64,000 bases of DNA from Patescibacteria group bacterium (lineage in GTDB: Bacteria > Patescibacteriota > Patescibacteriia > UBA9934): positions 20,542 to 84,541 of the forward strand of contig JBAYHK010000004.1 of the NCBI GenBank assembly GCA_041666145.1, written 5' to 3'. Shown one piece after another: positions 1 to 23,800 of the stretch. Positions within the stretch are counted from its first letter, which is position 1; each line of letters opens with the position of its first letter. Made by a program: the position numbers and the translations under genes. The notes under the pieces are model-generated. The model was given only the letters and a program-made list of their open reading frames with translations, did no database searches and was not told where the DNA came from.

Positions 1-3000
1 ACTCCATCTCCACATACAGACGGATCTGAATAACTCACTGATGAACCGATAAACGTACAAGAATCTGAACAACCCTCATCCCCATCACAATCTTCACCAA
101 TGCCGCTATCAGAAATAAGATCGACGCTATTGTTTCCGCAACAATCAACGTCAGAAGACGACGAACAGGCCGACAGTCCTTCGCGAATACATATCGACGA
201 ACATCCGTCATCATTTTCAATGTTCCCATCGTCACAAGTTTCATACGGCGTTGTAATAACGCCATCACCACAAAGCGCATTTCCAAGCGCGGCTAAACTT
301 TGAGATCCTTCACGCAAACACTGTCGAGAACATCCGTCACCGCTTGCATTATTTCCGTCATCACACTCTTCGCCAGCACGAGTAGTTGTGTTATATGCAA
401 CATCATTATTTCCACACGTAGCCTCAACTGCTGCAGATCCCTCCGCGAGACACATTGACGAACAGCCATCACCATCGACAAGGTTCCCATCATCACAGTC
501 TTCAGCAATGTCACTACTATAATTCACTTCGATGTCTCTGTTTCCGCAACAATTCGACCCAGAAGTTCCACATGATGATTCTGCGTACAAACAATCACTA
601 TTTGTTACACAAGCGCTACCGCTCAACGTACAAAGCGACGTCGACGTATCACAAGTCTCTATACACTCAGAGTCTGCAGTGCAAGAAGCTCCTGAAGAGC
701 TACAAACAAACGAACAGGCAGTACTGCCTTCATACAGACACATCGAAGAACACCCATCGTGATCTGTAGTATTTCCGTCATCGCATTCCTCTCCACCACC
801 ATTTGAATCTTGATCCAAAACACCATCACCACATACAGCCTGATACGCAGAACTTCCACCAGGAGTACAGCTCGCTGAACATCCTTCTGTAATACCAGTA
901 ATACTGCCATCAAGAAGCTCTCCTGACTGTGTATACCAAGCCGCAGTCGATGCAGTAGTTTCAGTATTTTGTGCATCATCAAGAATTGGATCTTCCCAAC
1001 TCCAGGCATAATCGCTACCAACAAGTCGCTGTCCAGAAGTCGAACAAGCGTCCGCTGCACCAAATGCATCAACGCTAAAGGCCGCAGTCTCGCCTATTGC
1101 TGTTGCAGTAGCAATAGATGGCGCGAGATCAATACGCTCAACAGAACAAAGCGTTCCGTCCTCACGGACTCGGAATGTCCAAGAATATCCCGTTCCATAA
1201 TTCGTTCTTGTTAAAGCCACGCCACTAACACTTCGAACCGATCCAGAAACGATAACTCGATAATACGTTCCTACTGTCAAAACTTGAGATTCAAACGTGA
1301 ATCCATTACATAACGTCCCCGCTGCATCACTATAAGAACATGACGGATTCGAGCTAACTTGCGTTAATGTTGTACACAATTCATTCGCACAAGAATACAA
1401 AAGAATATTTCCACCAGAAATAATGTCACCCTCTGTCATCGTGGTATTGAATAAAGCACCCACCTGAGCATTCGAACATGACTCAGTACAATCTGGCCAA
1501 AAATCCGAAATATATGGATCGGTAAAGTTTACTGTTAATTGCGAATCATCAGAAATCGCCCCTCCGCTCTCACTGTTTATTGCGGTTGCCGTAACTGTAG
1601 TAACGCCTTCTGCAAAAGCCTCAAATGTTGCACACGCTGTTGGATCTCCTGCGCACTCATTGTCTATAGAAGAATTGAAATCAACATAAGAATAAGAATC
1701 AATCGACCAATCCCACGCATAATCGTCATTATCTACAACAACGCATCCCGTTCCTGCATTTGCTCCAAATCCAGTTGTCGCGCCATCCTCACTCAAAGTT
1801 TCGCTTACAGGAGTCACAGTTACACGGTCAACAACACAATCTTCATCAGTTGCCGCAGTTGTAAAAGTCCAAGTCTCGTCGCTAGCCAAAGGAGTGGAGT
1901 CGATCGATTGCGCTACAGTCGAAACCGTAACCTGATATGTTGTATTTACATCAAAATTCTCAGTCGGAACCCACATGAAACGCGTAGCAGATTCTGATGA
2001 AGACACTGTTGCAATTCCCGAGACCGCCTCCGTAGTTGCACACGAATTATCCGTCGAGCTACTCACCGTCGCAGTGCACTTCGCCACCGTAACAGCATCC
2101 GCAACCGACGCTTCGTTCATGAGCGCCGTAAATTCTGCGTATACTGCCGCATTCACGCAGATCTCTCCTGATTCGGAGAATTCATTGCTTGGCACTGCAG
2201 AGACAATATCTGAAGAACATTCAGAAACAATCTGCGGCACCTCAGCAATCTCTCCAGTTGAAAAGCTCCAAGCATATGACGCGTAGACTCCTGCAGTCGT
2301 TACTGCAGATTCCGCAGAACCAACAGAAAAGTTTACAGCATTACTTGAAACACCATCCACGATTATCGATAAAGGACCGGTCGTAGCACCGACTGGAACA
2401 GGAACATCAATTGCGTCATTCGTCCAACGCGTCGAAGATGCTGTCGTAACACCACTATAGAAAGAAACGAGGTCGATATCACTTCCGAAGTTATCGCCAG
2501 CAATCGTGATACTTTCACCAACATTCCCAGATGCAGTAATCGCACAAATACCAGGAGTTGGACTATCTGTAGAAATAGTGAAATCTATTGAAGTCGATTC
2601 AGTTCCCTGACTGTTCGTCACCGAAACTGTATAAGCACCAGGAGCTATGTCTTGTCCGCTGTCATACGATTTCGGAACAATAACCGTGACTTGATCGTCA
2701 TTCCAAAAATCCGACAAACAAGCTTCAGGAAAATCAATACTCGCAGTAGCAGTGGTTCCATCACCGCCTCGGAATGTCACAGTTCCAACGCTACTTCGAA
2801 AATTCGTTCCGGAAATCGTTACGTACTGTCCAACCCCTCCAGAGCTTGGACTAATATCCGTAATTGTAGAGACATCGGTCTCTGGAACGTCGACAGTAAA
2901 GGAAATGGTATTCGAAGTGTTCCCGCCAACAACCACCGCAACGTCATAATCACCGGCATCTGCATTAGGAATAGTCACTTTCACTGTTCCATCAGCCCAT

Positions 3001-4721
3001 GACGTATACGAACCAGCTTCTACAGAAGAAAAATTCACCACCGATTCCCCTTGAGACTCTCCAAAATTAGATCCAGAAAGCGTGAGAGCTGACTCTGACT
3101 GACCAGAAGATCTTGAAAGTGTGCACAAATTCGGCATCACAACATCGTTCACGTCGAAATTTGAAACTAGTGCACCGTTGTCATCATCCGTGGCATCAGA
3201 AACATCATTTCCGGATGTAATTAAAATTGGACCATCGCCTGCACCTTCCGGTACCTCAACAACAATCTGCGTGTCACTCCATCCATCCGCACAATCATTC
3301 AACACAGTCGCCTCTACCGTTCCAGTCCCTGCCGCATCATAAAACATTACCGTTCCTGTATTTGCTCCAAAATCTGTTCCGGAAATTGTTACAAATGTTC
3401 CAACCGCACCAGAAATTGGAGCGACGTCAGTAATTGTTGGATTTGATGTACAAACAGACTCTTCACAAGATCCGCTTGAACATTCAGTAGCCTCTGTACA
3501 GCTCGAACCGTCACACGCACCACAATACGTGCTCAGTGAAGAGTCGCCTCCACAGTCAGTCCCAGTTTCACCAAGATCAGCGTCAGTAACTCCATTAAAA
3601 CACCACTCAGGTTGCGCGCGAACAGAAACTGTATCTGTATCTTCATTACCAGCAAGATCAAAAACAGTTGCGGAAATACTATATCGCTCACCATCCACAA
3701 AAGACTCGGTACTCAATGTGGTGCCAATCGTTGTCTCTGCTAAATGTCCAAGTGCCGGAACGCTGTCTTGCCAAACATCTTCAATAGAAAAGTCCGCAGA
3801 AACGACTACAACATTATCAATTGCACTTACCTGAACATCCATACTCGATGCCGACGCGACTCCAGCTCCACTCTCAGGAATAGTGATACTGGCCGAAGGG
3901 TCTTCAGTGTCAACATTTACTCCAGAAGTAAATGTCGCAGAGCACGGAGCGTCAAAACTACACGTCAAAATAACACCGTCTGAACTCTTTATGTTTTCCG
4001 TTGCAGCAATCGTGAATGTTGCATCTTTATCAAAACAGAATCGATCCGCATTCGGTTCAGGACATGCCGTACTCGGAGTAAAACGAATCACGTTATCTAA
4101 CACTGCATAATCTCCTGCAACCGCAGTACCAGATGCATCAACAATACTTAAATTTCCATCAACCGTCGTTTCATCTATTGCCTTACTAAATGTTACTCGA
4201 GGAACGATATTTCGAATTGACGTTTCTCCATCTGGAGAAAAGCTTGTTATTTCGAAAAGCGACGACGCACTGCCACCAAGACCAGATCCCGAACCAGAGC
4301 CTCCGCCAGCTCCAGAACCGCCAGATCCGCCTCCAGAAGCACCTGTTAATGCAGAAAGAACAAACGTCGCAATGCTCCATGACAACAAAATAATTACAAG
4401 TCCTATAGCCGCATTAATTAAAACCTGTTTTGCTTTATCAACTTTTTCCGGATTACCTTCAGCTGTCATCCAAAGAAAACCACCATATACAACAAAACAA
4501 ACTAGAACTATGCCAATGAATCCGAGTGCATAACGAATAATATTTCCAACAATGATCTTTGGATCTTCAGACCCGAGACCGGTGGTCTCTCCAACTGTCG
4601 TTAAATTCTCAGTAACCGCATCTGCAGCAAAGGCTACCTTTGGAAAACTACCAAAGGCTCCGAAAATCAATAAAAGTCCTAGTCCTATTCCTGCGAAAAA
4701 ATGGCGAAAAGAAATCTTCAC
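1..4721 (-). CDS. Giant cell-surface protein, partial (3' end/C-terminus lies beyond window start). It has an N-terminal signal peptide plus TrbC/VirB2-like two-helix membrane module, a Gly/Ser linker, four or more IPT/TIG-like repeats, and C-terminal CxxDDGN...DGCSxxC Cys-rich repeats (DUF4215 / Myxococcus-type)
   Basis: The minus frame with codon phase set by GTG at 4721 is open across all 4721 nt. No long ORF is listed in the track because the stop is outside the window. Hand translation gives VKISFRHFFAGIGLGLLLIFGAFGSFPKVAFAADA...GFLWMTAEGNPEKVDKAKQVLINAAIGLVIILLSW...GGSGGSGAGGGSGSGSG, then IPT-like ISGTDFGANTGTVMFYD repeats, then GDGVxxxxEECDDGNxxxGDGCSxxC repeats. The N-terminus aligns with the downstream paralog 4732..6561. 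Confidence 0.75.
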   Translation of the reverse strand, partial: MKISFRHFFAGIGLGLLLIFGAFGSFPKVAFAADAVTENLTTVGETTGLGSEDPKIIVGNIIRYALGFIGIVLVCFVVYGGFLWMTAEGNPEKVDKAKQVLINAAIGLVIILLSWSIATFVLSALTGASGGGSGGSGAGGGSGSGSGLGGSASSLFEITSFSPDGETSIRNIVPRVTFSKAIDETTVDGNLSIVDASGTAVAGDYAVLDNVIRFTPSTACPEPNADRFCFDKDATFTIAATENIKSSDGVILTCSFDAPCSATFTSGVNVDTEDPSASITIPESGAGVASASSMDVQVSAIDNVVVVSADFSIEDVWQDSVPALGHLAETTIGTTLSTESFVDGERYSISATVFDLAGNEDTDTVSVRAQPEWCFNGVTDADLGETGTDCGGDSSLSTYCGACDGSSCTEATECSSGSCEESVCTSNPTITDVAPISGAVGTFVTISGTDFGANTGTVMFYDAAGTGTVEATVLNDCADGWSDTQIVVEVPEGAGDGPILITSGNDVSDATDDDNGALVSNFDVNDVVMPNLCTLSRSSGQSESALTLSGSNFGESQGESVVNFSSVEAGSYTSWADGTVKVTIPNADAGDYDVAVVVGGNTSNTISFTVDVPETDVSTITDISPSSGGVGQYVTISGTNFRSSVGTVTFRGGDGTTATASIDFPEACLSDFWNDDQVTVIVPKSYDSGQDIAPGAYTVSVTNSQGTESTSIDFTISTDSPTPGICAITASGNVGESITIAGDNFGSDIDLVSFYSGVTTASSTRWTNDAIDVPVPVGATTGPLSIIVDGVSSNAVNFSVGSAESAVTTAGVYASYAWSFSTGEIAEVPQIVSECSSDIVSAVPSNEFSESGEICVNAAVYAEFTALMNEASVADAVTVAKCTATVSSSTDNSCATTEAVSGIATVSSSESATRFMWVPTENFDVNTTYQVTVSTVAQSIDSTPLASDETWTFTTAATDEDCVVDRVTVTPVSETLSEDGATTGFGANAGTGCVVVDNDDYAWDWSIDSYSYVDFNSSIDNECAGDPTACATFEAFAEGVTTVTATAINSESGGAISDDSQLTVNFTDPYISDFWPDCTESCSNAQVGALFNTTMTEGDIISGGNILLYSCANELCTTLTQVSSNPSCSYSDAAGTLCNGFTFESQVLTVGTYYRVIVSGSVRSVSGVALTRTNYGTGYSWTFRVREDGTLCSVERIDLAPSIATATAIGETAAFSVDAFGAADACSTSGQRLVGSDYAWSWEDPILDDAQNTETTASTAAWYTQSGELLDGSITGITEGCSASCTPGGSSAYQAVCGDGVLDQDSNGGGEECDDGNTTDHDGCSSMCLYEGSTACSFVCSSSGASCTADSECIETCDTSTSLCTLSGSACVTNSDCLYAESSCGTSGSNCCGNRDIEVNYSSDIAEDCDDGNLVDGDGCSSMCLAEGSAAVEATCGNNDVAYNTTTRAGEECDDGNNASGDGCSRQCLREGSQSLAALGNALCGDGVITTPYETCDDGNIENDDGCSSICIREGLSACSSSSDVDCCGNNSVDLISDSGIGEDCDGDEGCSDSCTFIGSSVSYSDPSVCGDG

Positions 4722-4731
4722 AAATGAATGT

Positions 4732-6543
4732 TTAGAAGAGCGTACATGCCGTCGACTGAGGAGTGCCATTACAACAATATGGAGAACTTGCAGTTGTCCC
4801 ACAACTACCACCGTTACTATCTGGGCCTTCCCCTGGAACAAAACAATTCTGATACTCGTTAAGAACTCCTTCGTTCGCCGCAACGCCATACATGAATGAC
4901 AAAGGAGGAACCGCCACTGAATCAGACGCAAGGAATGTTCCATGCTCAATCGTCACCATTGTTTTTACTGGAATTTGTGAATCAGTTAATACTTCTTCAT
5001 TTGCATCAGTCAACCAAACTGTTCTAAAGGCATACCAAAGTTCATGATCGTCGTTAGAATTGACCTCTTTATTTGAAAGCTCGATATTCGAAGAGTTCAC
5101 GCTCGATGTGTCTAATATTGAATCAAATGTAATCTGAATGGATTGGTCTAACGCAATATTTTCACTCAAAATTTCCGGAGCAATGCTTTCAATCGCTGGA
5201 GCGTCAAGATTTATATTATTTGTAGTAGTAAAACTCCAAATGTAATCATCGCCTGCACTGACGACACCATCACCATTTCCATCCATAGAGTTTCCTGACG
5301 TATCAACAATTCCATCGTAAGGATATATCGAAGCCGTCGGGTCTGTTGACGACGTTGGAGTAGCGGAAGCAATAGACGCTGTCACTAATTGACCACCAGG
5401 AAGGCAGTAAATCGTCTCACCACATGAGTTCGTTCCACAAGCGTCAGTAGTTGTGAATGTAACAGTTCGATATCCATTTCCAATTGTATATTCGCCTGCG
5501 GTTGGTGCAGACACCGACGCACCAACAACCTGAATATTCGAAAAACCACTTTCAGCTTCACGAATTCCAGAGGCGGAAGTTGGATCGACTGCCTCGCTAA
5601 ATGTCATCTGAACAGTAATGTTCCTATCTTTTGTCGAATTTGCCGATGGGGCAATGTTTTCAACTGTAGGTGGAGTAATATCGACTGTTGTTCCGGTTGT
5701 GAAGTACCAAAGGTATCCTCCGTCATCGATCATGGTCGCTCCTGTTGCGTCTTGAATTGAATCGCTCAAAAAGACTGCATACGTCACATCAGCAGTCGCA
5801 GAGCCAAGATATTCAGCTGGATCAAAAGAAAATGTTTTTAAATCATCAGTAAACGACACCGCCACATTCGTCAACGCGGAAGAATCACCAGTATCACGAA
5901 CATAAATTTTTACGTTTTCTGTATTTATTGCCGTTGCGACAGTATCGTCAGATACGTCTTCTGGAGTTCCGTTTGTATTGTATCCGTCAATAAACGATGA
6001 AATGTCCATTGCATCTCTAAACGTCACAAAAATCCGTGTATTTCGAGAAACGTCGGTGGCATTACGTGCTGGATAATGGTCTCTAATTGCGCCAGAGCCA
6101 AGCGAATTTGAAAGCCTTTCAACAGAAATACTACCCGAGCCATCTCCACTTCCGCTCCCCCCTGTTGCACCTCCGAGCGTATTCAAAATAAACGTCGCAA
6201 TCGCATAAGCAGAAAGTGTTATCACCAAACCAACAACTGCATTAATTAAGATCGCCTTTGCTTTCTCAACCCTCTTGCCATCTCCTCCTGCCGTCATCCA
6301 AATTGCACCAGCGTAAACAAAAAGGATCAAACAAATCACGCCAAGCAAACTCAATGCAACATTAATAACACGACCGATAATTGTCAGTAAATCTGTGTCT
6401 GCAAAACCGCCACCAGTTCCAACGGTGGCAAGATTTGCATCAGCGGCAAACGCGAAAAATGGAACAGCGATCAAGAACCCAATTGCAACAAAGAAAGAAC
6501 CGCGTTTGAACGCTCGAAAAAAAGAAGGGTTGAACACATGCAT
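4732..6543 (-). CDS. Surface protein paralog (~600 aa) with signal peptide plus TrbC/VirB2-like membrane module, GSGSGDGSGS linker and Big_5/SbsA-like Ig domains. Track ORF extends to 6561; start at MHVFNPSFF (6543) preferred by alignment to the paralog
   Basis: ORF 4732..6561. Two hydrophobic helices INVALSLLGVICLILFVYAGAIWM / LINAVVGLVITLSAYAIATFIL are separated by GGDGKRVEKAKA, matching VirB2/TrbC topology. ITPPTVENIAP...MTFSEAVD is Ig-like. Confidence 0.8.
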   Translation of the reverse strand: MHVFNPSFFRAFKRGSFFVAIGFLIAVPFFAFAADANLATVGTGGGFADTDLLTIIGRVINVALSLLGVICLILFVYAGAIWMTAGGDGKRVEKAKAILINAVVGLVITLSAYAIATFILNTLGGATGGSGSGDGSGSISVERLSNSLGSGAIRDHYPARNATDVSRNTRIFVTFRDAMDISSFIDGYNTNGTPEDVSDDTVATAINTENVKIYVRDTGDSSALTNVAVSFTDDLKTFSFDPAEYLGSATADVTYAVFLSDSIQDATGATMIDDGGYLWYFTTGTTVDITPPTVENIAPSANSTKDRNITVQMTFSEAVDPTSASGIREAESGFSNIQVVGASVSAPTAGEYTIGNGYRTVTFTTTDACGTNSCGETIYCLPGGQLVTASIASATPTSSTDPTASIYPYDGIVDTSGNSMDGNGDGVVSAGDDYIWSFTTTNNINLDAPAIESIAPEILSENIALDQSIQITFDSILDTSSVNSSNIELSNKEVNSNDDHELWYAFRTVWLTDANEEVLTDSQIPVKTMVTIEHGTFLASDSVAVPPLSFMYGVAANEGVLNEYQNCFVPGEGPDSNGGSCGTTASSPYCCNGTPQSTACTLF

Positions 6544-6577
6544 GGCAGAAGTATACCGCAAATGTGTTCAACCCTTT

Positions 6578-7672
6578 TTACGCACCTTGGGGAAAACGGC
6601 TTGCAATTGCACGCCGCAAATCATCAAGACCTTCACCAGTTACTGCAGAAACAGCAATCGCATTTTTCGGCACAGGAAATGACATTGAACCTAATGCATC
6701 AACCTTGTTGTACACACGAAGTCGTCGATTCTCCGGCACACTGAGCTCTGTCAAAATATCATCAACGACTTCAATCTTTTCATCTCGTTTATCATCTGCC
6801 GCATCAATAACGTGCAAGAGTACATCCGCACCAAGCGCCTCTGATAACGTCGATCGAAATGCTGCAATTAAACTTGGAGGCAACCCCTGAATAAATCCAA
6901 TCGTATCTGAAAGCAAGGCGGTTCCCTCAAGATCTGGCAAATACATTGTTCCAACACGAGTATCGAGTGTGGCGAACAAAGCGTTCGCTGCGTACTCCTT
7001 TCGTTTTGTTAAAGCGTTCAATAACGATGTTTTCCCAGCATTCGTATATCCAACCAATGCCACAGTTCGTTCCCCCATTCTCGCTCTCCGTTCTCTCTGC
7101 AAATCTCTCACTCCTTGATACTTCTCTAATCGCTTTAAAATCGCGCGCTCCTGATCTCGCAAATGACGCTTCATGGCTTCTGTATTTCCCTCTCCGCTTC
7201 CACCACGTGTTCCCGTTCCACCTCGCTGTCTTCCAAGCTCCTCACTCATGTTGTAAATGCGTGGCCCCATGTGTCGCAGTCGAGCAAGTTCAATTTCAAG
7301 TTTTGCCTCTGCAGTGCTTGCATGCTTTTCAAAAATATTCAAAATCAAATCAATCCTATCCCACACTTTCATCTTTGCAGGTCGCAACAATTCTTCTAAA
7401 TTAAAAATCTGCTGTGGTTTAAGCGGATGATTCACCACAAACAAATCCGCGCCAAGTTCTTTCGACTCCGCGATCAATTCTTCTACGCGTCCCTTGCCAA
7501 TAAACGTCTGATAGTCTGGTTTTGCTTTTCGTTGAATTGTTTTTACAACGACTGCACCTCCATACGTTCGAACAAGTTCTTCAAGCTCCGTCATTCTATC
7601 TTCTGCCTCACGTTTATCTGCAGAAAAATGAATAAGATCGGCAAGGACTGCTTTGTGAATATGCGTCGACAT
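6578..7672 (-). CDS. hflX: GTPase HflX
   Basis: G1 motif GYTNAGKTSLLNALT, DTIGF, NKVD; HflX-type N-terminal domain; start overlaps yqeY stop (TAATG). Confidence 0.9.
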   Translation of the reverse strand: MSTHIHKAVLADLIHFSADKREAEDRMTELEELVRTYGGAVVVKTIQRKAKPDYQTFIGKGRVEELIAESKELGADLFVVNHPLKPQQIFNLEELLRPAKMKVWDRIDLILNIFEKHASTAEAKLEIELARLRHMGPRIYNMSEELGRQRGGTGTRGGSGEGNTEAMKRHLRDQERAILKRLEKYQGVRDLQRERRARMGERTVALVGYTNAGKTSLLNALTKRKEYAANALFATLDTRVGTMYLPDLEGTALLSDTIGFIQGLPPSLIAAFRSTLSEALGADVLLHVIDAADDKRDEKIEVVDDILTELSVPENRRLRVYNKVDALGSMSFPVPKNAIAVSAVTGEGLDDLRRAIASRFPQGA

Positions 7673-8628: not shown

Positions 8629-10665
8629 TCAGTAGAGATCGATGACCGCGTGCCCGTCGTATCCCCATCCCCAGTCGAAGGGCAGAGGGGAAATGGAAAC
8701 GCCTTCGAGGGTGACATCTTCACAATGATCGACGTCCTGGTAGAGCCACGTACCGTCACCAAAGTCGTGCTCCTCTCCGTAGGTCCCATCCGCGTCGTTG
8801 TCGAAGGGGCCGTTCAGAGCGACCGTGTGGCCGTGCACGAACAGGAAGTCGGTACAGAGCATGCCGAAGCCCTGCGCATAGCCCGGGAAGTCCCAGTCTG
8901 GGTCGAGGCTGCCGTCAGGAATGACGGTCCAGTCACGAATCCAGAGCTGCCAGGATACGCTCATGAGACCAGTCACCGGAGTAACGCAGATCTCCAAGGT
9001 ATCGGAGACATTCGCCAAGCCGTCGCAGTTGTCGTCCACGCCGTTCATGGACACTTCTTCGGCGTCAGGGTTGATCTCGGCATCCAGGTCGTTGCAGTCG
9101 CCGTCTTCCACGGTGAAGCCGTCGCTATCGGCGTCGGCGTCGTCGCAGGTCAGATCTTCGTCGACGCTGTCATCGCAGTCATCGTCCATGTCGTTGCAGA
9201 CTTCGTCGGCGGCGGGGTTGATGCCGGAATTTCCGTCGTCGCAGTCGGTGCTGTCGGAGACGTAGCCCTCGGGCGCGGAACAGGCAATCGCCGGAGTCCC
9301 GGAGCCGTAACCGTCATCGTCCATGTCGAGATAGAAGGAGGACATGAGCCCTTCATCCACCGCGCCGTCACAGTCGTCGTCGATACCATTGCAGGCTTCG
9401 GGGGCGCCGTTGTAGATGGCGGAGTCGGTGGGCTGGCAGTCCGTGATGTCCGGATCGCCGTCACCGTCGGTGTCGACCTCGGGCTCGGGTTCGCAGACAT
9501 CTCCTTCGTCGACGGCGGTGTCGCAGTCGTTGTCGATGGTGTCGCAGATCTCGGTGGCGCCGGGGTTGATGGCGGAGAGGAGGTCGTTGCAGTCGGTGTC
9601 GTCGGCGATGAAGCCGGTGGGAGCACCGTCACAGGTAGATTCCGAATTGGTGCTGTCGCCGTAGCCATCGCTGTCGCTGTCCGCGTACCAGGTGGCAAAG
9701 GGCAAGCCCTCGTCGATCTCGCTGTCGCAGTTGTCATTCACGCCGTTGCAGACTTCGGAGGCGCCGGGGTAGATGGCGATGTTGGAGTCGTTGCAGTCGG
9801 TGCTGTCGGAGACGTAGCCTTCGGGCGCAGAGCAGGCGGCAACGGAAACATCGATGTCCCCATAACCGTCCGTATCCGTGTCCCTGTAGAAGGCGTAGAG
9901 CTCAACTCCACTGTCCGCGGCGTCGACGAGCAGGTCACAGTCGTTGTCGATGGTGTCGCAGATCTCGGTGGCGCCGGGGTTGATGGCGGAGAGGAGGTCG
10001 TTGCAGTCGGTGCTGTCGGAGACGTAGCCTTCGGGCGCGGAGCAGGCGAGCATCATCATATCGGGGTCGCCGTAGCCGTCATCGTCATCGTCCACGAAGA
10101 AAGTGCTCGTGACGTCCTCATCGACGTCGCCATCGCAGTTGTCGTCGAGGCCGTTGCATTCTTCGGTGGCATCGGGATTGGTCTCGATGTCATCGTCGTC
10201 GCAGTCGCCGTCGATGGTGGCGTAGCCTTCGGTTCCGCAGGCCATGAAGCTTTCGCCGGTGCCGTAGGAATCGCCGTCGCTGTCGGTGTAGACAGGAACG
10301 TCGGCGTCCGTGACGTCAGCACTTTCATCGTTGCAGTCGCCGAAGTTGGTGCCCTCGGTCGAAGTGACTTCAATCCATTCTTCTTCCGGAGTGCCCGCGT
10401 AGATGCAGAAGCAGCCGGTGTGGAACGGATCCGAGACGCTCGCGTTGACGTAGGTGTCGCCGTCGGCGTCGGGGCAGTAGGCCTTGAGGGGGTCGGCGGA
10501 ACCGCTCACCACAAGGGCGAGACAGTCTTCAACGGTGGCGCCAGCCGGGAGATCTTTTCCCGTGGCATTGGTGCCAGGGATGTCGTAGATGTCATCGGTC
10601 TTGGTGGAACAGCCCATGAGGGCGAGGAGAAGGAGCGTAGCTCCGGAGATACTGGTGGATTTCAT
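8629..10665 (-). CDS. Secreted lipoprotein (678 aa) with about 8 tandem DxDCND..INPGAxExCDxxDNDCDxxxDE putative metal-binding (MopE-like, PF11617-type) repeats; markedly GC-rich
   Basis: MKSTSISGATLLLLALMGCS lipobox; repeated ...DCNDLLSAINPGATEICDTIDNDCD...; the gene is visibly GC-rich relative to flanking genes (GC not computed). Confidence 0.85.
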   Translation of the reverse strand: MKSTSISGATLLLLALMGCSTKTDDIYDIPGTNATGKDLPAGATVEDCLALVVSGSADPLKAYCPDADGDTYVNASVSDPFHTGCFCIYAGTPEEEWIEVTSTEGTNFGDCNDESADVTDADVPVYTDSDGDSYGTGESFMACGTEGYATIDGDCDDDDIETNPDATEECNGLDDNCDGDVDEDVTSTFFVDDDDDGYGDPDMMMLACSAPEGYVSDSTDCNDLLSAINPGATEICDTIDNDCDLLVDAADSGVELYAFYRDTDTDGYGDIDVSVAACSAPEGYVSDSTDCNDSNIAIYPGASEVCNGVNDNCDSEIDEGLPFATWYADSDSDGYGDSTNSESTCDGAPTGFIADDTDCNDLLSAINPGATEICDTIDNDCDTAVDEGDVCEPEPEVDTDGDGDPDITDCQPTDSAIYNGAPEACNGIDDDCDGAVDEGLMSSFYLDMDDDGYGSGTPAIACSAPEGYVSDSTDCDDGNSGINPAADEVCNDMDDDCDDSVDEDLTCDDADADSDGFTVEDGDCNDLDAEINPDAEEVSMNGVDDNCDGLANVSDTLEICVTPVTGLMSVSWQLWIRDWTVIPDGSLDPDWDFPGYAQGFGMLCTDFLFVHGHTVALNGPFDNDADGTYGEEHDFGDGTWLYQDVDHCEDVTLEGVSISPLPFDWGWGYDGHAVIDLY

Positions 10666-12312: not shown

Positions 12313-12954
12313 TTACTCTGAATACGTTGGAACATCAAATGTCGACACTCGATCAAACGGCAACCCACGAACCCAGACTCGTCCAATAAACTCATCCATA
12401 GTAACGGCGCCAAAGTATCTCGAGTCCAAACTCGCGTCTCGATTGTCTCCTAGAACATAGAATTCATCAGCTCCAAGCGTTCGACGATCCCGTCCTTCTG
12501 TGACTTCCCCGATATAATATTCTGTAAGCACAAATCCATTCGGAGACTCTAAATTGTAGATTGTAATCATCCCGTTACGAATCTCTACAGTCTCTCCTGG
12601 AAGGCCAATAACACGCTTAATATAATATTGATCTTCATGCTGCGGAGGTCGAAATACCACGATTTCCCCACGCTCCGGATTTCTGAATCGGAAAGTCAAC
12701 TCGTCAATAATGAGATATTCATTGTCATAAAAGTTCGGCTCCATCGACGCTCCCTTTACAACAAACGGCTGAATAAGAAAATATCGCACCGGAAGAATAA
12801 TCGCCAAAGCAAGCACTGCAATCTGCACAATCTCTGCAATAAACAAGGCGAATGCTCCTAATGAAGGCCCGAACCATCGTAAGAATGGATGAGCTTCAGG
12901 AGTCTCTTCTTTACGAGAAAAAATCATAGTCACGCGCCACAATAGCATAGTCAC
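12313..12954 (-). CDS. lepB: Signal peptidase I
   Basis: GASMEPNF (catalytic Ser), KRVIGLPGE, GDNRDASLDSR. Confidence 0.85.
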   Translation of the reverse strand: MTMLLWRVTMIFSRKEETPEAHPFLRWFGPSLGAFALFIAEIVQIAVLALAIILPVRYFLIQPFVVKGASMEPNFYDNEYLIIDELTFRFRNPERGEIVVFRPPQHEDQYYIKRVIGLPGETVEIRNGMITIYNLESPNGFVLTEYYIGEVTEGRDRRTLGADEFYVLGDNRDASLDSRYFGAVTMDEFIGRVWVRGLPFDRVSTFDVPTYSE

Positions 12955-13058
12955 ACTCCCCCGTCACCTTGCGAGCCTTTTGCATTTTTGCTATCCTCCC
13001 ATCGATTCTTGAAAGAAGAAAGGTAGCGAATAAGAACGAGAAGTGTGTAAAAACTATT

Positions 13059-20819: not shown

Positions 20820-22133
20820 TTACGGCCTTAGTCGCTGCACATCTCGCGGGAAGATTGTTGCCTCTTTTACGTTTGCAAGACTAAGGATGTTTTGTGTTAA
20901 ACGCTGTAGGCCAATGGCAAATCCGCCTTCTGGTGGAATGCCGTATTTGTGCATCATGAGATAGTCTTCAAAGTCTGCTGGATTTAAACCTTTGTCGATG
21001 ATGCGCTGCATCTGCTCGTCGTACCGATTAATGCGCATACCACCGGAAGTAATCTCACTGCCAAATCCAATAACGTCGAAGGTTAATGTATTCTCCGGAT
21101 TTGATGGATCGACCTTTGCATAAAACGGTCGCTTTGACGGTGGCCAGTCTGTTACAAAAACAAATCCGCAGTTGAAATACTTCACCGACCACACTGTCGA
21201 CAGCCAACGCTCTGCCGCAGGCGAAAGATCTGGCTCGCCAGTCTCATCCACTCCCCCTTCATCTCTGTACGCCTCAAGTGCCTGCTTGAGCGAAATACGT
21301 GGAAACTTTTCTCCAAGTGGCGGCAATGTTGTTTCAAGCAGTTTCAATTCAACTGCACATTCTTTCTCGACCGTCGCGAGCATTTCTCGAATTGCGCGCT
21401 CTTCAACGTCCATGACTTCGCTCATATCTGTCACAAAACCCATTTCGAATTCAAGTTGATTGAACTCAGTTAAGTGACGAGATGTTGCAAACTTTTCTGC
21501 ACGGAAAGAATACGAAACGCCGTAAACGCCCTCATAAACTCCCATCGTTATCTGCTTGTAAAGCTGCGCCGACTGAGTAAGCGTTGCTTCGCGGCCGTAA
21601 TAGTCAACCTTGAAAAACTCCGCGCCACCTTCGCTTGCGGCTCCGGCAAGAACTGGGAAAAAGATTTCTGTGAATCCTTGCTTCTCCATGAATGCTCGAT
21701 ATCCATGAACAAGCGCAGCTTGAACTCGAAAGATTGCACGCTGTTTTGGATGGCGAAGGGTAATCACGCGATGATCAAGAAGTGTATCGAGATTGACATC
21801 GAGAACTGGCTTCCCGATTTCGACTGGCACAACGTCAACAACTGGTGACAGAATCTCCAGTGATTCAACCTGCATTTCGACTTCTTTTATTGCAGGGTCT
21901 TTACTCTTCTTTTCCACAATCTTTCCCGTTACCGAAAGCACTGTTTCAACTTGAAGTCCCTTAAGCTGCTCAAGGTGCTCAGCAGAAAGCACAGTCTGCG
22001 CAAGGCCAGAACGATCACGAATAATCGCGAATCCAAACTTACTCATGTCACGAAGTGCGTTCAGCCAACCAGCAATAGTCACTGTTTCACCGAGTTTCTG
22101 TGGAAGGTCTTGAATGAGTGTGCGGTTGTTCAT
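20820..22133 (-). CDS. aspS: Aspartyl-tRNA synthetase, archaeal/eukaryal-type class IIb (~437 aa, possibly non-discriminating)
   Basis: FRAEKFATSRHLTEFNQLEFEMGF; C-terminal GGFAIGLQRL...FPRDVQRLRP is typical of archaeal-type AspRS. Confidence 0.65.
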   Translation of the reverse strand: MNNRTLIQDLPQKLGETVTIAGWLNALRDMSKFGFAIIRDRSGLAQTVLSAEHLEQLKGLQVETVLSVTGKIVEKKSKDPAIKEVEMQVESLEILSPVVDVVPVEIGKPVLDVNLDTLLDHRVITLRHPKQRAIFRVQAALVHGYRAFMEKQGFTEIFFPVLAGAASEGGAEFFKVDYYGREATLTQSAQLYKQITMGVYEGVYGVSYSFRAEKFATSRHLTEFNQLEFEMGFVTDMSEVMDVEERAIREMLATVEKECAVELKLLETTLPPLGEKFPRISLKQALEAYRDEGGVDETGEPDLSPAAERWLSTVWSVKYFNCGFVFVTDWPPSKRPFYAKVDPSNPENTLTFDVIGFGSEITSGGMRINRYDEQMQRIIDKGLNPADFEDYLMMHKYGIPPEGGFAIGLQRLTQNILSLANVKEATIFPRDVQRLRP

Positions 22134-22147
22134 AGAGTTTGAAGCTT

Positions 22148-22176: not shown

Positions 22177-23474
22177 TACGGAGTCGAACGGTTCAGCATG
22201 CGTGGAAATGCAATGGTTTCGCGAATGTGATGCACGCCGGTAATCCAGCGCACGGTTCGCTCAAGGCCGATACCAAAGCCGCTGTGTGGAACGCTACCGT
22301 ACTTTCGCGTGTTCAAGTACCACTCATACTCTGCCAACGGATAGCCCCGATCAACAATCTCTTGCTTCAACACTTCGTATTCTTCTTCACGCTGACTCCC
22401 TCCGATAATCTCACGCCCTTCTTCTGGCGCAATCAAGTCCGCACAACACGCTCGAACCACACCAGCATCGTCAGTAAATCGCTTCATGTAGAACGCTTTT
22501 ACTGCTGCGGGATAATCTGTAATGAATACTGGAAGTTTGTATTTCTCCCCAAGGAAAATCTCTTCTTCTGTTGACATGTCGTCGAGCATATCGACAGTCA
22601 ATCCGTCTTGAGTAAGTTCCGCTTTTACTTCTGCGTGCGTGCGTCGAACAAATGGCTCGTCAACAAGTCGCTGTAAAAGTGACGTATCTCGCTCGAGAAT
22701 TGCGAGTTCGTCTTTGCAATGCTCAAGAACATCTTTCACGATTCGCTTCACCATCTTCTCCTGCACATCCATGTTCATCGTCTGGTCGTAATACGCCATT
22801 TCTGCATCCATCATCCACAACTCAGAAAGGTGATGACGTGTTTTGCTTTTTTCTGCGCGAAACACCGGACCAAAGTCGTAAACTTTTCCAAAGCTCATCA
22901 CACCAGCCTCGCTATACAACTGACCAGACTGCGAAAGGTACATTGGCGAACCGTAGTAATCGACAGTAAAAAGCTCAGTAGTATCTTCGCAACTCGTTGG
23001 CTGCAAAATTGGCGCATCAAACCGAACAAATCCTTCCTCATGAAAGAACTGTTCGATGCTGAAAAAGACTCGATCGCGAATACGAAGCACTGCCCAAGGC
23101 GTTTGCGAGCGAAGGTAGAGATCGCGATTGTCGAAAAGAAATTCTGGACCATGCTCTTTCTTTGCGATTGGATAATCTTCCGGCGCAAGATGCACAAGCT
23201 GAAATCCAGTTCCTTGAATCTCAAATCCTGACGGTGACCTTGGCTCCGCCTTCACGATTCCTTTTACAATCACCGATGACTCAATACGAACTGTCTGCAA
23301 AACTTCCCACGCGTCATCACCAACATCCTGCGGCGTATACACAACCTGAACACGTCCAGATCCATCTCTGAACTGAAGAAAATAAATCTTTCCACTTGAA
23401 CGAAAGTTGTACGCCCAACCCTTAAGCTCAACCTCCTGCCCGATCATTTCTGAAAGTTGCGATATGTATGTCAT
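22176..23474 (-). CDS. asnS: Asparaginyl-tRNA synthetase
   Basis: 432 aa; GWAYNFRSSGKIYFLQFRDGSG N-term, FRAEKSKTRHHLSELWMMDAEMAY, C-term FPRMLNRSTP. Confidence 0.7.
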   Translation of the reverse strand: MTYISQLSEMIGQEVELKGWAYNFRSSGKIYFLQFRDGSGRVQVVYTPQDVGDDAWEVLQTVRIESSVIVKGIVKAEPRSPSGFEIQGTGFQLVHLAPEDYPIAKKEHGPEFLFDNRDLYLRSQTPWAVLRIRDRVFFSIEQFFHEEGFVRFDAPILQPTSCEDTTELFTVDYYGSPMYLSQSGQLYSEAGVMSFGKVYDFGPVFRAEKSKTRHHLSELWMMDAEMAYYDQTMNMDVQEKMVKRIVKDVLEHCKDELAILERDTSLLQRLVDEPFVRRTHAEVKAELTQDGLTVDMLDDMSTEEEIFLGEKYKLPVFITDYPAAVKAFYMKRFTDDAGVVRACCADLIAPEEGREIIGGSQREEEYEVLKQEIVDRGYPLAEYEWYLNTRKYGSVPHSGFGIGLERTVRWITGVHHIRETIAFPRMLNRSTP

Positions 23475-23800
23475 AAAATAAAATTCGCCCGTACAACATC
23501 ACGACCAAATAGTCATGAAGCTGTACGGGCGAATATTCTTCGCGGTGCCACCGTACTTTGATCTCATTCTTCGCAATAACGGGCGAAACCCGCGAGGTTC
23601 TACTGTCCCTCCGTAGCTCCGAAGGAGTAAACGGGGAGGATTTCTTCCTCGAGCTTGGCGGTGTTCAAGTCGCCTCAAACGCTCGTGATAGCGACTATAG
23701 CACAAAGATTCTTTGGCGCAAATTCGAACGCGTGGCATGAAAGAAAGATGTTTGTTGCGAGAAAAATCGAACGAATCAATAGTTCGATCTGGCTTTTTCT
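23475..23800 (-). promoter_or_regulatory. T-box riboswitch-like leader of asnS (T-box motif plus terminator / antiterminator)
   Basis: Minus-strand transcript contains GUACGGUGGCACCGCGAAG (match to T-box AGGGUGGNACCGCG core), then terminator AUUCGCCCGUAC...GUACGGGCGAAU plus UUUAUUUU ending at the ATG. Upstream are hairpins and AGUAGAACC (possible AAC specifier). Confidence 0.5.

Follow-up and report, generated by a model that had tools for sequence, protein, structure and literature searches.

A conserved gene pair joining a VirB2-like pilin module to large adhesin-like ectodomains in Patescibacteria

Type IV secretion systems (T4SSs) of Patescibacteria employ VirB2-like pilins encoded in arrays of 2 to 11 pilin genes, a feature unique among monoderm T4SSs (PMC12102498, PMC10633639, PMC12857230), in which T4SS pilins are otherwise unknown (PMC12857230). 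Southlakia epibionticum, the one species tested, requires both the T4SS and the pilin array to grow as an epibiont (PMC10633639); T4SS pilin genes rank among the most highly expressed genes of unknown function in Patescibacteria grown with methanogens (PMC10936435); and PF18895, the T4SS_pilin model, is the dominant domain of freshwater-specific structure clusters (bioRxiv 10.1101/2025.04.23.650224). Here, we describe two adjacent minus-strand genes, designated A and B, at the beginning of a 64,000-nucleotide (nt) stretch of DNA from an ultra-small bacterium (Patescibacteria/Uhrbacteria; assembly GCA_041666145.1, contig JBAYHK010000004.1, positions 20,542 to 84,541; hereafter, the window), whose products begin with a module resembling these pilins and continue into large, adhesin-like ectodomains.

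The stand-alone VirB2-like pilins of Patescibacteria (PF18895) share with A and B the signal peptide, N-terminal segment, helices, Lys-rich loop, and invariant residues, and they too occur as tandem divergent paralogs. However, they comprise only ~100 to 150 amino acids (aa) and end a few residues past helix 2, whereas A and B continue for ~3,000 and 470 residues more and are located neither in a multi-gene pilin array nor next to virB4. Canonical TrbC/VirB2/TraA pilins (PF04956) likewise combine a long, cleaved signal peptide with a two-helix hairpin and a basic loop. In contrast to these small and, in some systems, cyclized peptides, A and B belong to a monoderm host, carry a huge C-terminal extension, and have neither a direct PF04956 match nor a sequence match to solved pilins. 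Weak hairpin similarity also links A and B to Mbov_0395 and ICE_MMCAP2_0565 of Mycoplasma integrative and conjugative elements (ICEs), i.e., to another wall-less or monoderm lineage, but those are stand-alone proteins of ~80 aa; the corresponding NCBIfam model NF045849 (Mycoplasma-ICE pilin-like) matches the two hairpins at 33.5 and 27.1 bits, below its curated cut-off of 40 bits.

The design of a small pilin module with a grafted vWA domain bearing a metal ion-dependent adhesion site (MIDAS) is shared with PilB of Streptococcus sanguinis, a modular type IV pilin for which a position at the filament tip has been proposed by its authors (PMC8179133). This likeness is one of analogy and not of homology, as type IV pilins have a class III signal peptide, a hydrophobic alpha-1N segment, and a prepilin peptidase, whereas A and B have a Sec-type AxA site and a VirB2-like hairpin, and their ectodomain is about ten times larger. 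PrgB-type T4SS adhesins of Gram-positive bacteria and VWA-bearing tip adhesins of sortase pili also combine a large Ig-like stalk with a distal adhesive domain and, as A and B putatively do, serve cell-cell contact, but they are held by a C-terminal LPXTG/sortase anchor instead of an N-terminal pilin hairpin. Neither PrgB homologues nor T4SS adhesins were detected in Patescibacteria in a survey of 3,035 genomes (PMC12102498). Pilin modules fused to large ectodomains find no mention in the searchable literature, which is not proof of absence; as the data below indicate, the pilin family itself is known, and the adhesin-fusion architecture is widespread and previously undescribed in that literature.

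Two putative surface proteins with a shared N-terminal module

Minus-strand translation yielded both open reading frames (ORFs) as an earlier note, made from the sequence alone, had described them, namely, a gene A product of more than 1570 aa adjacent to a gene B product of ~600 aa. Gene A begins with a GTG codon at position 4721, 10 nt past the stop codon of B, with no stop codon from there to base 1 of the window. When the exact sequence of B was looked up, its locus was also found on a 246-kb JGI/NCBI contig (Ga0376277_0000389; GCA_041660465.1, JBAZWH010000001.1), on a 258-kb ENA contig (k141_30625), and on a Logan assembly contig, and on the complete contigs full-length A is a single intact ORF of 3,131 aa. 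The note's claim that the giant frame is open and ends outside the window was thus borne out by extension of the contig, and since A is intact in four assemblies, its frame contains no hidden stop codon. Gene callers differ on the start of A (3,131 versus 3,147 aa); for B, the ATG at 6543 was chosen by JGI, NCBI, and ENA alike (603 aa), the alternative start being the first TTG at 6561 (frame 4732-6561).

Homology between A and B is confined to ~125 N-terminal aa (43% identity, E 2e-24). The two genes had been noted as paralogs, a description that applies to the N-terminal module and fails for the rest of the proteins; paralogy throughout is ruled out. According to sequence and hydropathy, each N-terminus consists of a signal peptide, two hydrophobic helices with a Lys-rich loop between them, and a Gly/Ser linker, with the cleavage site AFA↓ADA of the signal peptide being predicted from the sequence pattern. 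More specifically, hydropathy places the helices at aa 55-89 and 96-129 in A and at aa 51-87 and 92-124 in B, with loop cores of KVDKAK and KRVEKAK, respectively. The helices in the AlphaFold2 (AF2) models agree (Table 1), consistent with the two-helix topology with charged loop proposed earlier rather than with a single anchor.

Both proteins score above the gathering cut-off (26.6 bits) of PF18895, A at 38.4 bits (E 1.4e-9) and B at 33.8 bits (E 3.6e-8), and their isolated N-termini reach 44.7 and 37.6 bits, respectively. Consistently, a profile derived from stand-alone pilins matched A and B at E values of 9e-39 and 2e-35, so that the similarity to pilins lies far beyond chance. The canonical TrbC/VirB2 model PF04956 matched neither A nor B at E<=1; some PF18895 relatives match that model too, thereby tying the family transitively to canonical VirB2/TrbC. 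The likeness to VirB2/TrbC pilins proposed in the note therefore holds by way of PF18895 for both proteins, and a direct match to PF04956 is lacking.

When the first 140 residues of A were used as query, only PF18895 proteins were retrieved, nearly all of ~100 to 150 aa, with several of the nearest relatives (40-50% identity, E down to 1e-27) being named 'pilin [Patescibacteria group bacterium]'. A and B align with 44 stand-alone pilins over the whole stretch from signal peptide through helix 2, and all invariant columns of this alignment (G81, W84, G89, G107, L108, V109, and I110) are kept in both, as are the family motifs G-F-x-W-M-T-A-x-G ... K-A-K ... I-G-L-V-I. An exhaustive profile search returned 77,011 cluster representatives at E<=1e-3, which indicates that the pilin family is very large; none of the best 120 protein-database profile matches carried extra domains, all being short or multi-module pilins. 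A profile of the module alignment found no solved pilin among PDB sequences, with only spurious summed matches to the repeats of designed 'Pizza' beta-propellers.

The exhaustive pilin search was topped by polypilins (P0056-P0125), in which one signal peptide is followed by 2 to 17 tandem whole modules per ORF (e.g., P0073, 1,775 aa; P0096, 1,147 aa; P0058, 427 aa), and some of which match PF04956 TrbC strongly (84 and 145 bits).

Beyond the linker, the domains named in the earlier note were recovered in both proteins, i.e., Big_5-like Ig domains in B and four IPT/TIG domains plus Cys-rich repeats in A (Table 1). The AF2 model of B (mean predicted local distance difference test [pLDDT] score of 64.6) comprises the hairpin, a disordered linker (residues 121-150), three beta-sandwiches, and a low-confidence Cys-rich tail, in which C567, C590, C591, and C600 are invariant alignment columns. 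In Foldseek, strings of bacterial Ig-like domains ranked highest among PDB structures; the best match of the B ectodomain was the S-layer protein SbsC (4uj6, E 1.5e-9), with further matches to BIg domains of L,D-transpeptidases (LdtMt2), the Sap S-layer protein, and titin. A carries Big_5 as well, ahead of its TIG domains, and beyond the window it continues with more Cys-rich repeats and a C-terminal VWA domain (PF00092, aa 2854-2998, 51.2 bits) containing the MIDAS-type motif DTSGSMS. The C-termini, ending in STACTLF (B) and VRIEYCAP (A), show no LPXTG motif, no hydrophobic tail, and no C-terminal anchor. Given the Ig-like domains and the distal VWA/MIDAS domain of A, both proteins look like stalks, A with an adhesive head, and these domain assignments support the adhesin-like nature of the ectodomains.

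Conservation and distribution of the pair

Orthologs of B with 48-74% identity were found in 13 metagenome-assembled genomes (MAGs) by a scan of species-representative genomes. Most of these MAGs are labelled Candidatus Uhrbacteria, which is placed in class ABY1 (Table S1, PMC12102498). Five MAGs with clear orthologs (L004, L005, L010, L013, and L016) are third-party records titled 'uncultured Gammaproteobacteria bacterium', which is probably a mislabel. In all 13 MAGs, a hidden Markov model (HMM) of the pilin module identified the tandem again, with a fusion of ~600 aa ahead of one of ~3,100 aa, and in the 64-kb window it detected no module other than those of A and B. In 10 genomes, A aligns collinearly from end to end at 45-75% identity, gaps being nearly absent. 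Distant relatives keep the pair along with its neighborhood, e.g., P0176, for which identity is 31% across ~2,900 aligned residues, and the conserved order reads lepB, hisS, rpsU, yqeY, (hflX), medium fusion, giant fusion, small TSP3-repeat proteins, ybeY, dgkA, ftsA, ftsZ, nrdR, and pyk.

A search with aa 1-420 of A gave 14 matches only, swamped by low-complexity linker words, and frequency was judged instead from a metagenome scan with the motif GF[LI]WMT[AS]xG, which retrieved at least 562 relatives. Among the 80 loci most similar to the query, a medium fusion (450-950 aa) directly preceded a giant fusion (>=1,500 aa or contig-truncated) in 51; a single long partner was present in 10 (4 giant only, 6 medium only), an array of three or more short pilins in 9, and fragments in 10. 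As this sample is biased toward query-like modules, the counts speak for a widespread architecture and do not measure its share of the whole family. The module was N-terminal in 105/105 long ORFs of these loci. Fusion modules are 43-47% identical to one another as against 37% to short pilins, and their nearest neighbors are almost always other fusion modules; they form a coherent subgroup of the pilin family.

Constraint is distributed unevenly along the proteins, with the hairpin being the best-conserved segment in both. Mean pairwise identity among orthologs is 37% for the signal peptide in both families, 75% (B) and 70% (A) for the pilin hairpin, and 69% (B) and 61% (A) for the ectodomain, and the linker varies in sequence and length (51-60% identity). 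Moreover, G81, W84, M85, G89, A97, and G107 are kept in 32/32 fusion proteins from about 15 genomes, and the pilin invariants persist even where ectodomain identity drops to 31%. A purely hydrophobic tether would be expected to diverge as the signal peptide does, and the hairpin does not; this pattern is an argument, short of proof, for a pilin-specific interaction in which the hairpin is still engaged.

The membrane-proximal part of the giant protein is recognizable in 31 ORFs and its middle part in 23, as opposed to 3 for the VWA C-terminus (L024, L062, and L100 among the sampled metagenomic giants), indicating a conserved stalk and a variable tip; different lineages seem to have exchanged the distal tip. 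A second subtype of the pair combines ~900 aa with ~1,950 aa; there, the homologue of the giant's mid-region is encoded downstream in an ORF of its own, which measures ~870-1,020 aa where complete and has no pilin module (L039 15976-19035, L095 15705-18311, L079 18511-20280, L092, and L094); by its sequence, this arrangement looks like a split or a fusion of the giant gene. In two distant relatives (L020 20094-21880 and L022 20058-23000), the giant is directly followed by small membrane proteins that are Cys-rich and contain bacterial thrombospondin type 3 (TSP3) repeats, and then by an unannotated or fn3 protein. The TSP3-repeat proteins may be part of the same surface system as the pair.

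Short PF18895 arrays are repeatedly preceded, on the same strand, by an ORF of ~460-480 aa (L017 5185-6585, L056 7606-9003, L071 7024-8406, L075 6511-7917, L078 3540-4985, L088 384-1766, and L089 6146-7540), which in L017 encodes a solute-binding protein (SBP_bac_1/8). The six-gene Uhrbacteria array at L017 (6603-8908) includes three pilins of 229-267 aa with a C-terminal hairpin and an insert of ~170-220 aa between signal peptide and helix 1, suggesting that extra domains can also be grafted on the N-terminal, likewise external, side.

Coordinates and neighboring genes

The features of the pair and the two located genes that bear on it are listed in Table 1. Every window ORF of >=540 aa, plus many shorter ones, was scanned. 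The long ORFs encode a LytR-family protein, EF-G, ComEC, LeuRS, IF-2, and a MopE-repeat protein, and the shorter ones include HflX, HisRS, LepB, Pth, Der, SecY, and RecO; the genes called in the 10 kb downstream are likewise housekeeping genes. Rfam identified four tRNAs in the window and nothing else, and a promoter/terminator scan around the pair found sites no more numerous than in shuffled sequence.

Table 1. Positions of the pair, its predicted parts, and two nearby genes in the window
Feature	Position	Strand	Description and evidence
Gene B	4732-6543	minus	603-aa putative modular pilin; NCBI MFA6017692.1, named 'Ig-like domain-containing protein'
B signal peptide	6445-6543	minus	aa 1-33; ends AFA↓ADA, signal peptidase I-type site; sequence, hydropathy
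B pilin-like hairpin	6172-6393	minus	aa 51-124; loop GGDGKRVEKAK; AF2 helices 52-84 and 89-125
B Gly/Ser-rich flexible linker	6115-6171	minus	aa 125-143; pLDDT <50 over residues 121-150
B ectodomain	4864-6093	minus	aa ~151-560; three beta-sandwich (Big_5/bacterial Ig-like) domains; Big_5 x3, E 7.8e-18; AF2
B C-terminal Cys-rich tail	4735-4863	minus	aa 561-603; NCFxPG...CCNG...C; low model confidence
Gene A	1-4721	minus	first 1,573 codons in window; NCBI MFA6017691.1, named 'IPT/TIG domain-containing protein'
A signal peptide	4626-4721	minus	aa 1-32; ends AFA↓ADA; sequence, hydropathy
A pilin-like hairpin	4335-4559	minus	aa 55-129; loop EGNPEKVDKAK; AF2 helices 54-85 and 91-130, pLDDT >90
A Gly/Ser linker	4263-4334	minus	aa 130-153; sequence
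A IPT/TIG Ig-like domains (four)	2322-3416	minus	aa ~436-800; PF01833, 4 stretches, E 1.9e-23
A acidic Cys-rich repeats (TIGR02232/DUF4215)	12-836	minus	aa ~1296-1570; TIGR02232 x4, E 6.6e-26; DUF4215 x3
hflX GTPase gene	6578-7672	minus	34 nt upstream of B; conserved neighbor, not a functional part
lepB (signal peptidase I)	12316-12963		located in window

The MopE gene (8632-10665, minus) encodes a 678-aa lipoprotein-like protein with seven MopE-type Cys/Asp-rich 'metal-binding' repeats, in a stretch with a GC content of 0.567 versus ~0.46 in the flanks. Its strand is disputed, ENA calling a 732-aa ORF on the opposite strand, and divergent versions occupy the same place in related genomes, none being detected in the L016 locus. 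As a third member of the pair this gene is ruled out, for it has no pilin module. Elsewhere in the window, the leucyl-tRNA synthetase (49780-52713, minus) carries a NUDIX hydrolase domain (aa 411-527) directly behind its editing domain (aa 251-400), an architecture also present in another Uhrbacteria genome (L017 1358-4306). Two adjacent ORFs (20823-22145 and 22179-23498, minus) encode class II aminoacyl-tRNA synthetases of ~440 aa with OB anticodon-binding and tRNA-synt_2 domains (Asp/Lys/Asn type), which would represent either an AspRS/AsnRS pair or a tandem duplication. Finally, the sole Pfam match of a 447-aa ORF (53028-54368, minus) is the RNA polymerase alpha C-terminal domain (aa 352-409), with no alpha N-terminal domain detected.

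Proposed role of the pair and alternative explanations

The reading that we favor, to which we give about an even chance of being right, is that A and B are modular VirB2-like (PF18895) pilins that co-assemble with stand-alone, T4SS-handled pilins and present adhesins. LepB (signal peptidase I) would cut both proteins at AFA↓ADA, and the cleaved hairpin would insert into the cytoplasmic membrane. By the positive-inside rule, its Lys-rich loop would face the cytoplasm and both of its ends the outside, which would make the C-terminal ectodomain extracellular. Because it keeps all pilin-specific invariants, the hairpin has most likely retained the function of a pilin and would pack against stand-alone VirB2-like pilins, either in the pilus, as a tip or sparse subunit, or at the membrane base, and the secretion apparatus would thereby carry its own host-binding adhesins. 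In the structures of F- and T-pili, both termini of VirB2-type subunits are exposed at the pilus exterior, so that a C-terminal graft is topologically compatible with display on a filament, though for steric reasons at the tip or at low density only. The existence of polypilins indicates, moreover, that continuation of the chain after helix 2 is tolerated in the PF18895 family. Attachment or pilus-tip display, the function suggested in the earlier note, is thus plausible.

Several points weigh against co-assembly with T4SS pilins. The pair lies outside any T4SS cluster, among housekeeping and cell-division genes, and no VirB4-like or other recognizable T4SS gene was found among the scanned window ORFs or in the 10 kb downstream, a span of about 70 kb. 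A VirB2-type helical polymer could hardly accommodate an ectodomain of ~3,000 aa except at the tip, fold searches gave no specific VirB2 fold (a helical hairpin being non-discriminating as a query), and the Patescibacterial T4SS pilus has not been visualized in the literature located. A T4SS background in the clade is indicated indirectly: in Table S1 of PMC12102498, the VirB4 entry for the ortholog-bearing Uhrbacteria genome GCA_002782865.1 (locus L015) is 'Yes', a listing that concerns this relative and not the genome studied here, and another Uhrbacteria genome has a six-gene pilin array.

The genomic location would suit an autonomous membrane anchor, in which an exapted pilin hairpin merely tethers giant surface or S-layer-like proteins, independently of a T4SS and of any pilus; we consider this a real possibility, if not a probable one. 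The pair sits between hflX upstream and ybeY, ftsA, and ftsZ downstream in a deeply conserved order with no T4SS gene nearby, the B ectodomain is most like the S-layer proteins SbsC and Sap, a stalk of ~3,000 aa would be able to span the envelope without a pilus, and the invariably N-terminal position of the module is what a signal-anchor device predicts. A plain anchor should, however, keep hydrophobicity and not identity, whereas the hairpin is the most conserved segment, far above the signal peptide, and every fusion examined retains all family invariants despite the divergence of the ectodomains. Nor does remoteness from T4SS genes set the pair apart, as the short pilin arrays of related loci do not lie beside VirB4 either: among large ORFs flanking eight such arrays and several fusion loci, no VirB4-type family (Pfam) was found, and distance to T4SS genes therefore does not separate the hypotheses.

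In RP4 TrbC maturation, a C-terminal segment is removed before cyclization. With this superfamily precedent for C-terminal trimming, A and B could also be processed precursors, cleaved in or near the Gly/Ser linker into a small pilin and a released adhesin, secreted or separately attached, with the module acting as an export carrier. The long disordered linker straight after helix 2 would suit such cleavage, and polypilins with 2 to 17 modules might need processing. We nevertheless regard this explanation as improbable, because neither a protease gene nor a conserved motif for cleavage turned up, linkers differ among orthologs in sequence and length, and the tandem is maintained in many lineages with the module always attached. 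That the giant gene runs past the edge of the window and that callers differ on its start might suggest mis-assembly or faulty gene calling, and hydrophobic segments might match by chance. Such an artefact is effectively refuted by identical genes in four independent assemblies, by collinear, almost gap-free orthologs of 45-75% identity in 10-13 genomes, and by profile E values down to 1e-38.

Returning to modular pilins that co-assemble with those of the T4SS, we tentatively extend this reading, to a form that we think rather unlikely as a whole, in which the pair represents the first modular VirB2-type pilins, with adhesin subunits loaded into or capping the Patescibacterial T4SS pilus, and constitutes the missing host-attachment device, its conserved stalk bearing a lineage-variable tip that sets host range. 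The fusion has been hidden by present annotation names ('Ig-like domain-containing protein' and 'IPT/TIG domain-containing protein'). Patescibacteria account for a large share of uncultured bacterial diversity and are apparently host-attached; the pair may be a means of gripping host cells and offers a concrete, testable candidate for host attachment. If this proposal is true, the idea of the modular pilin would reach beyond type IV pili to the pilins of type IV secretion.

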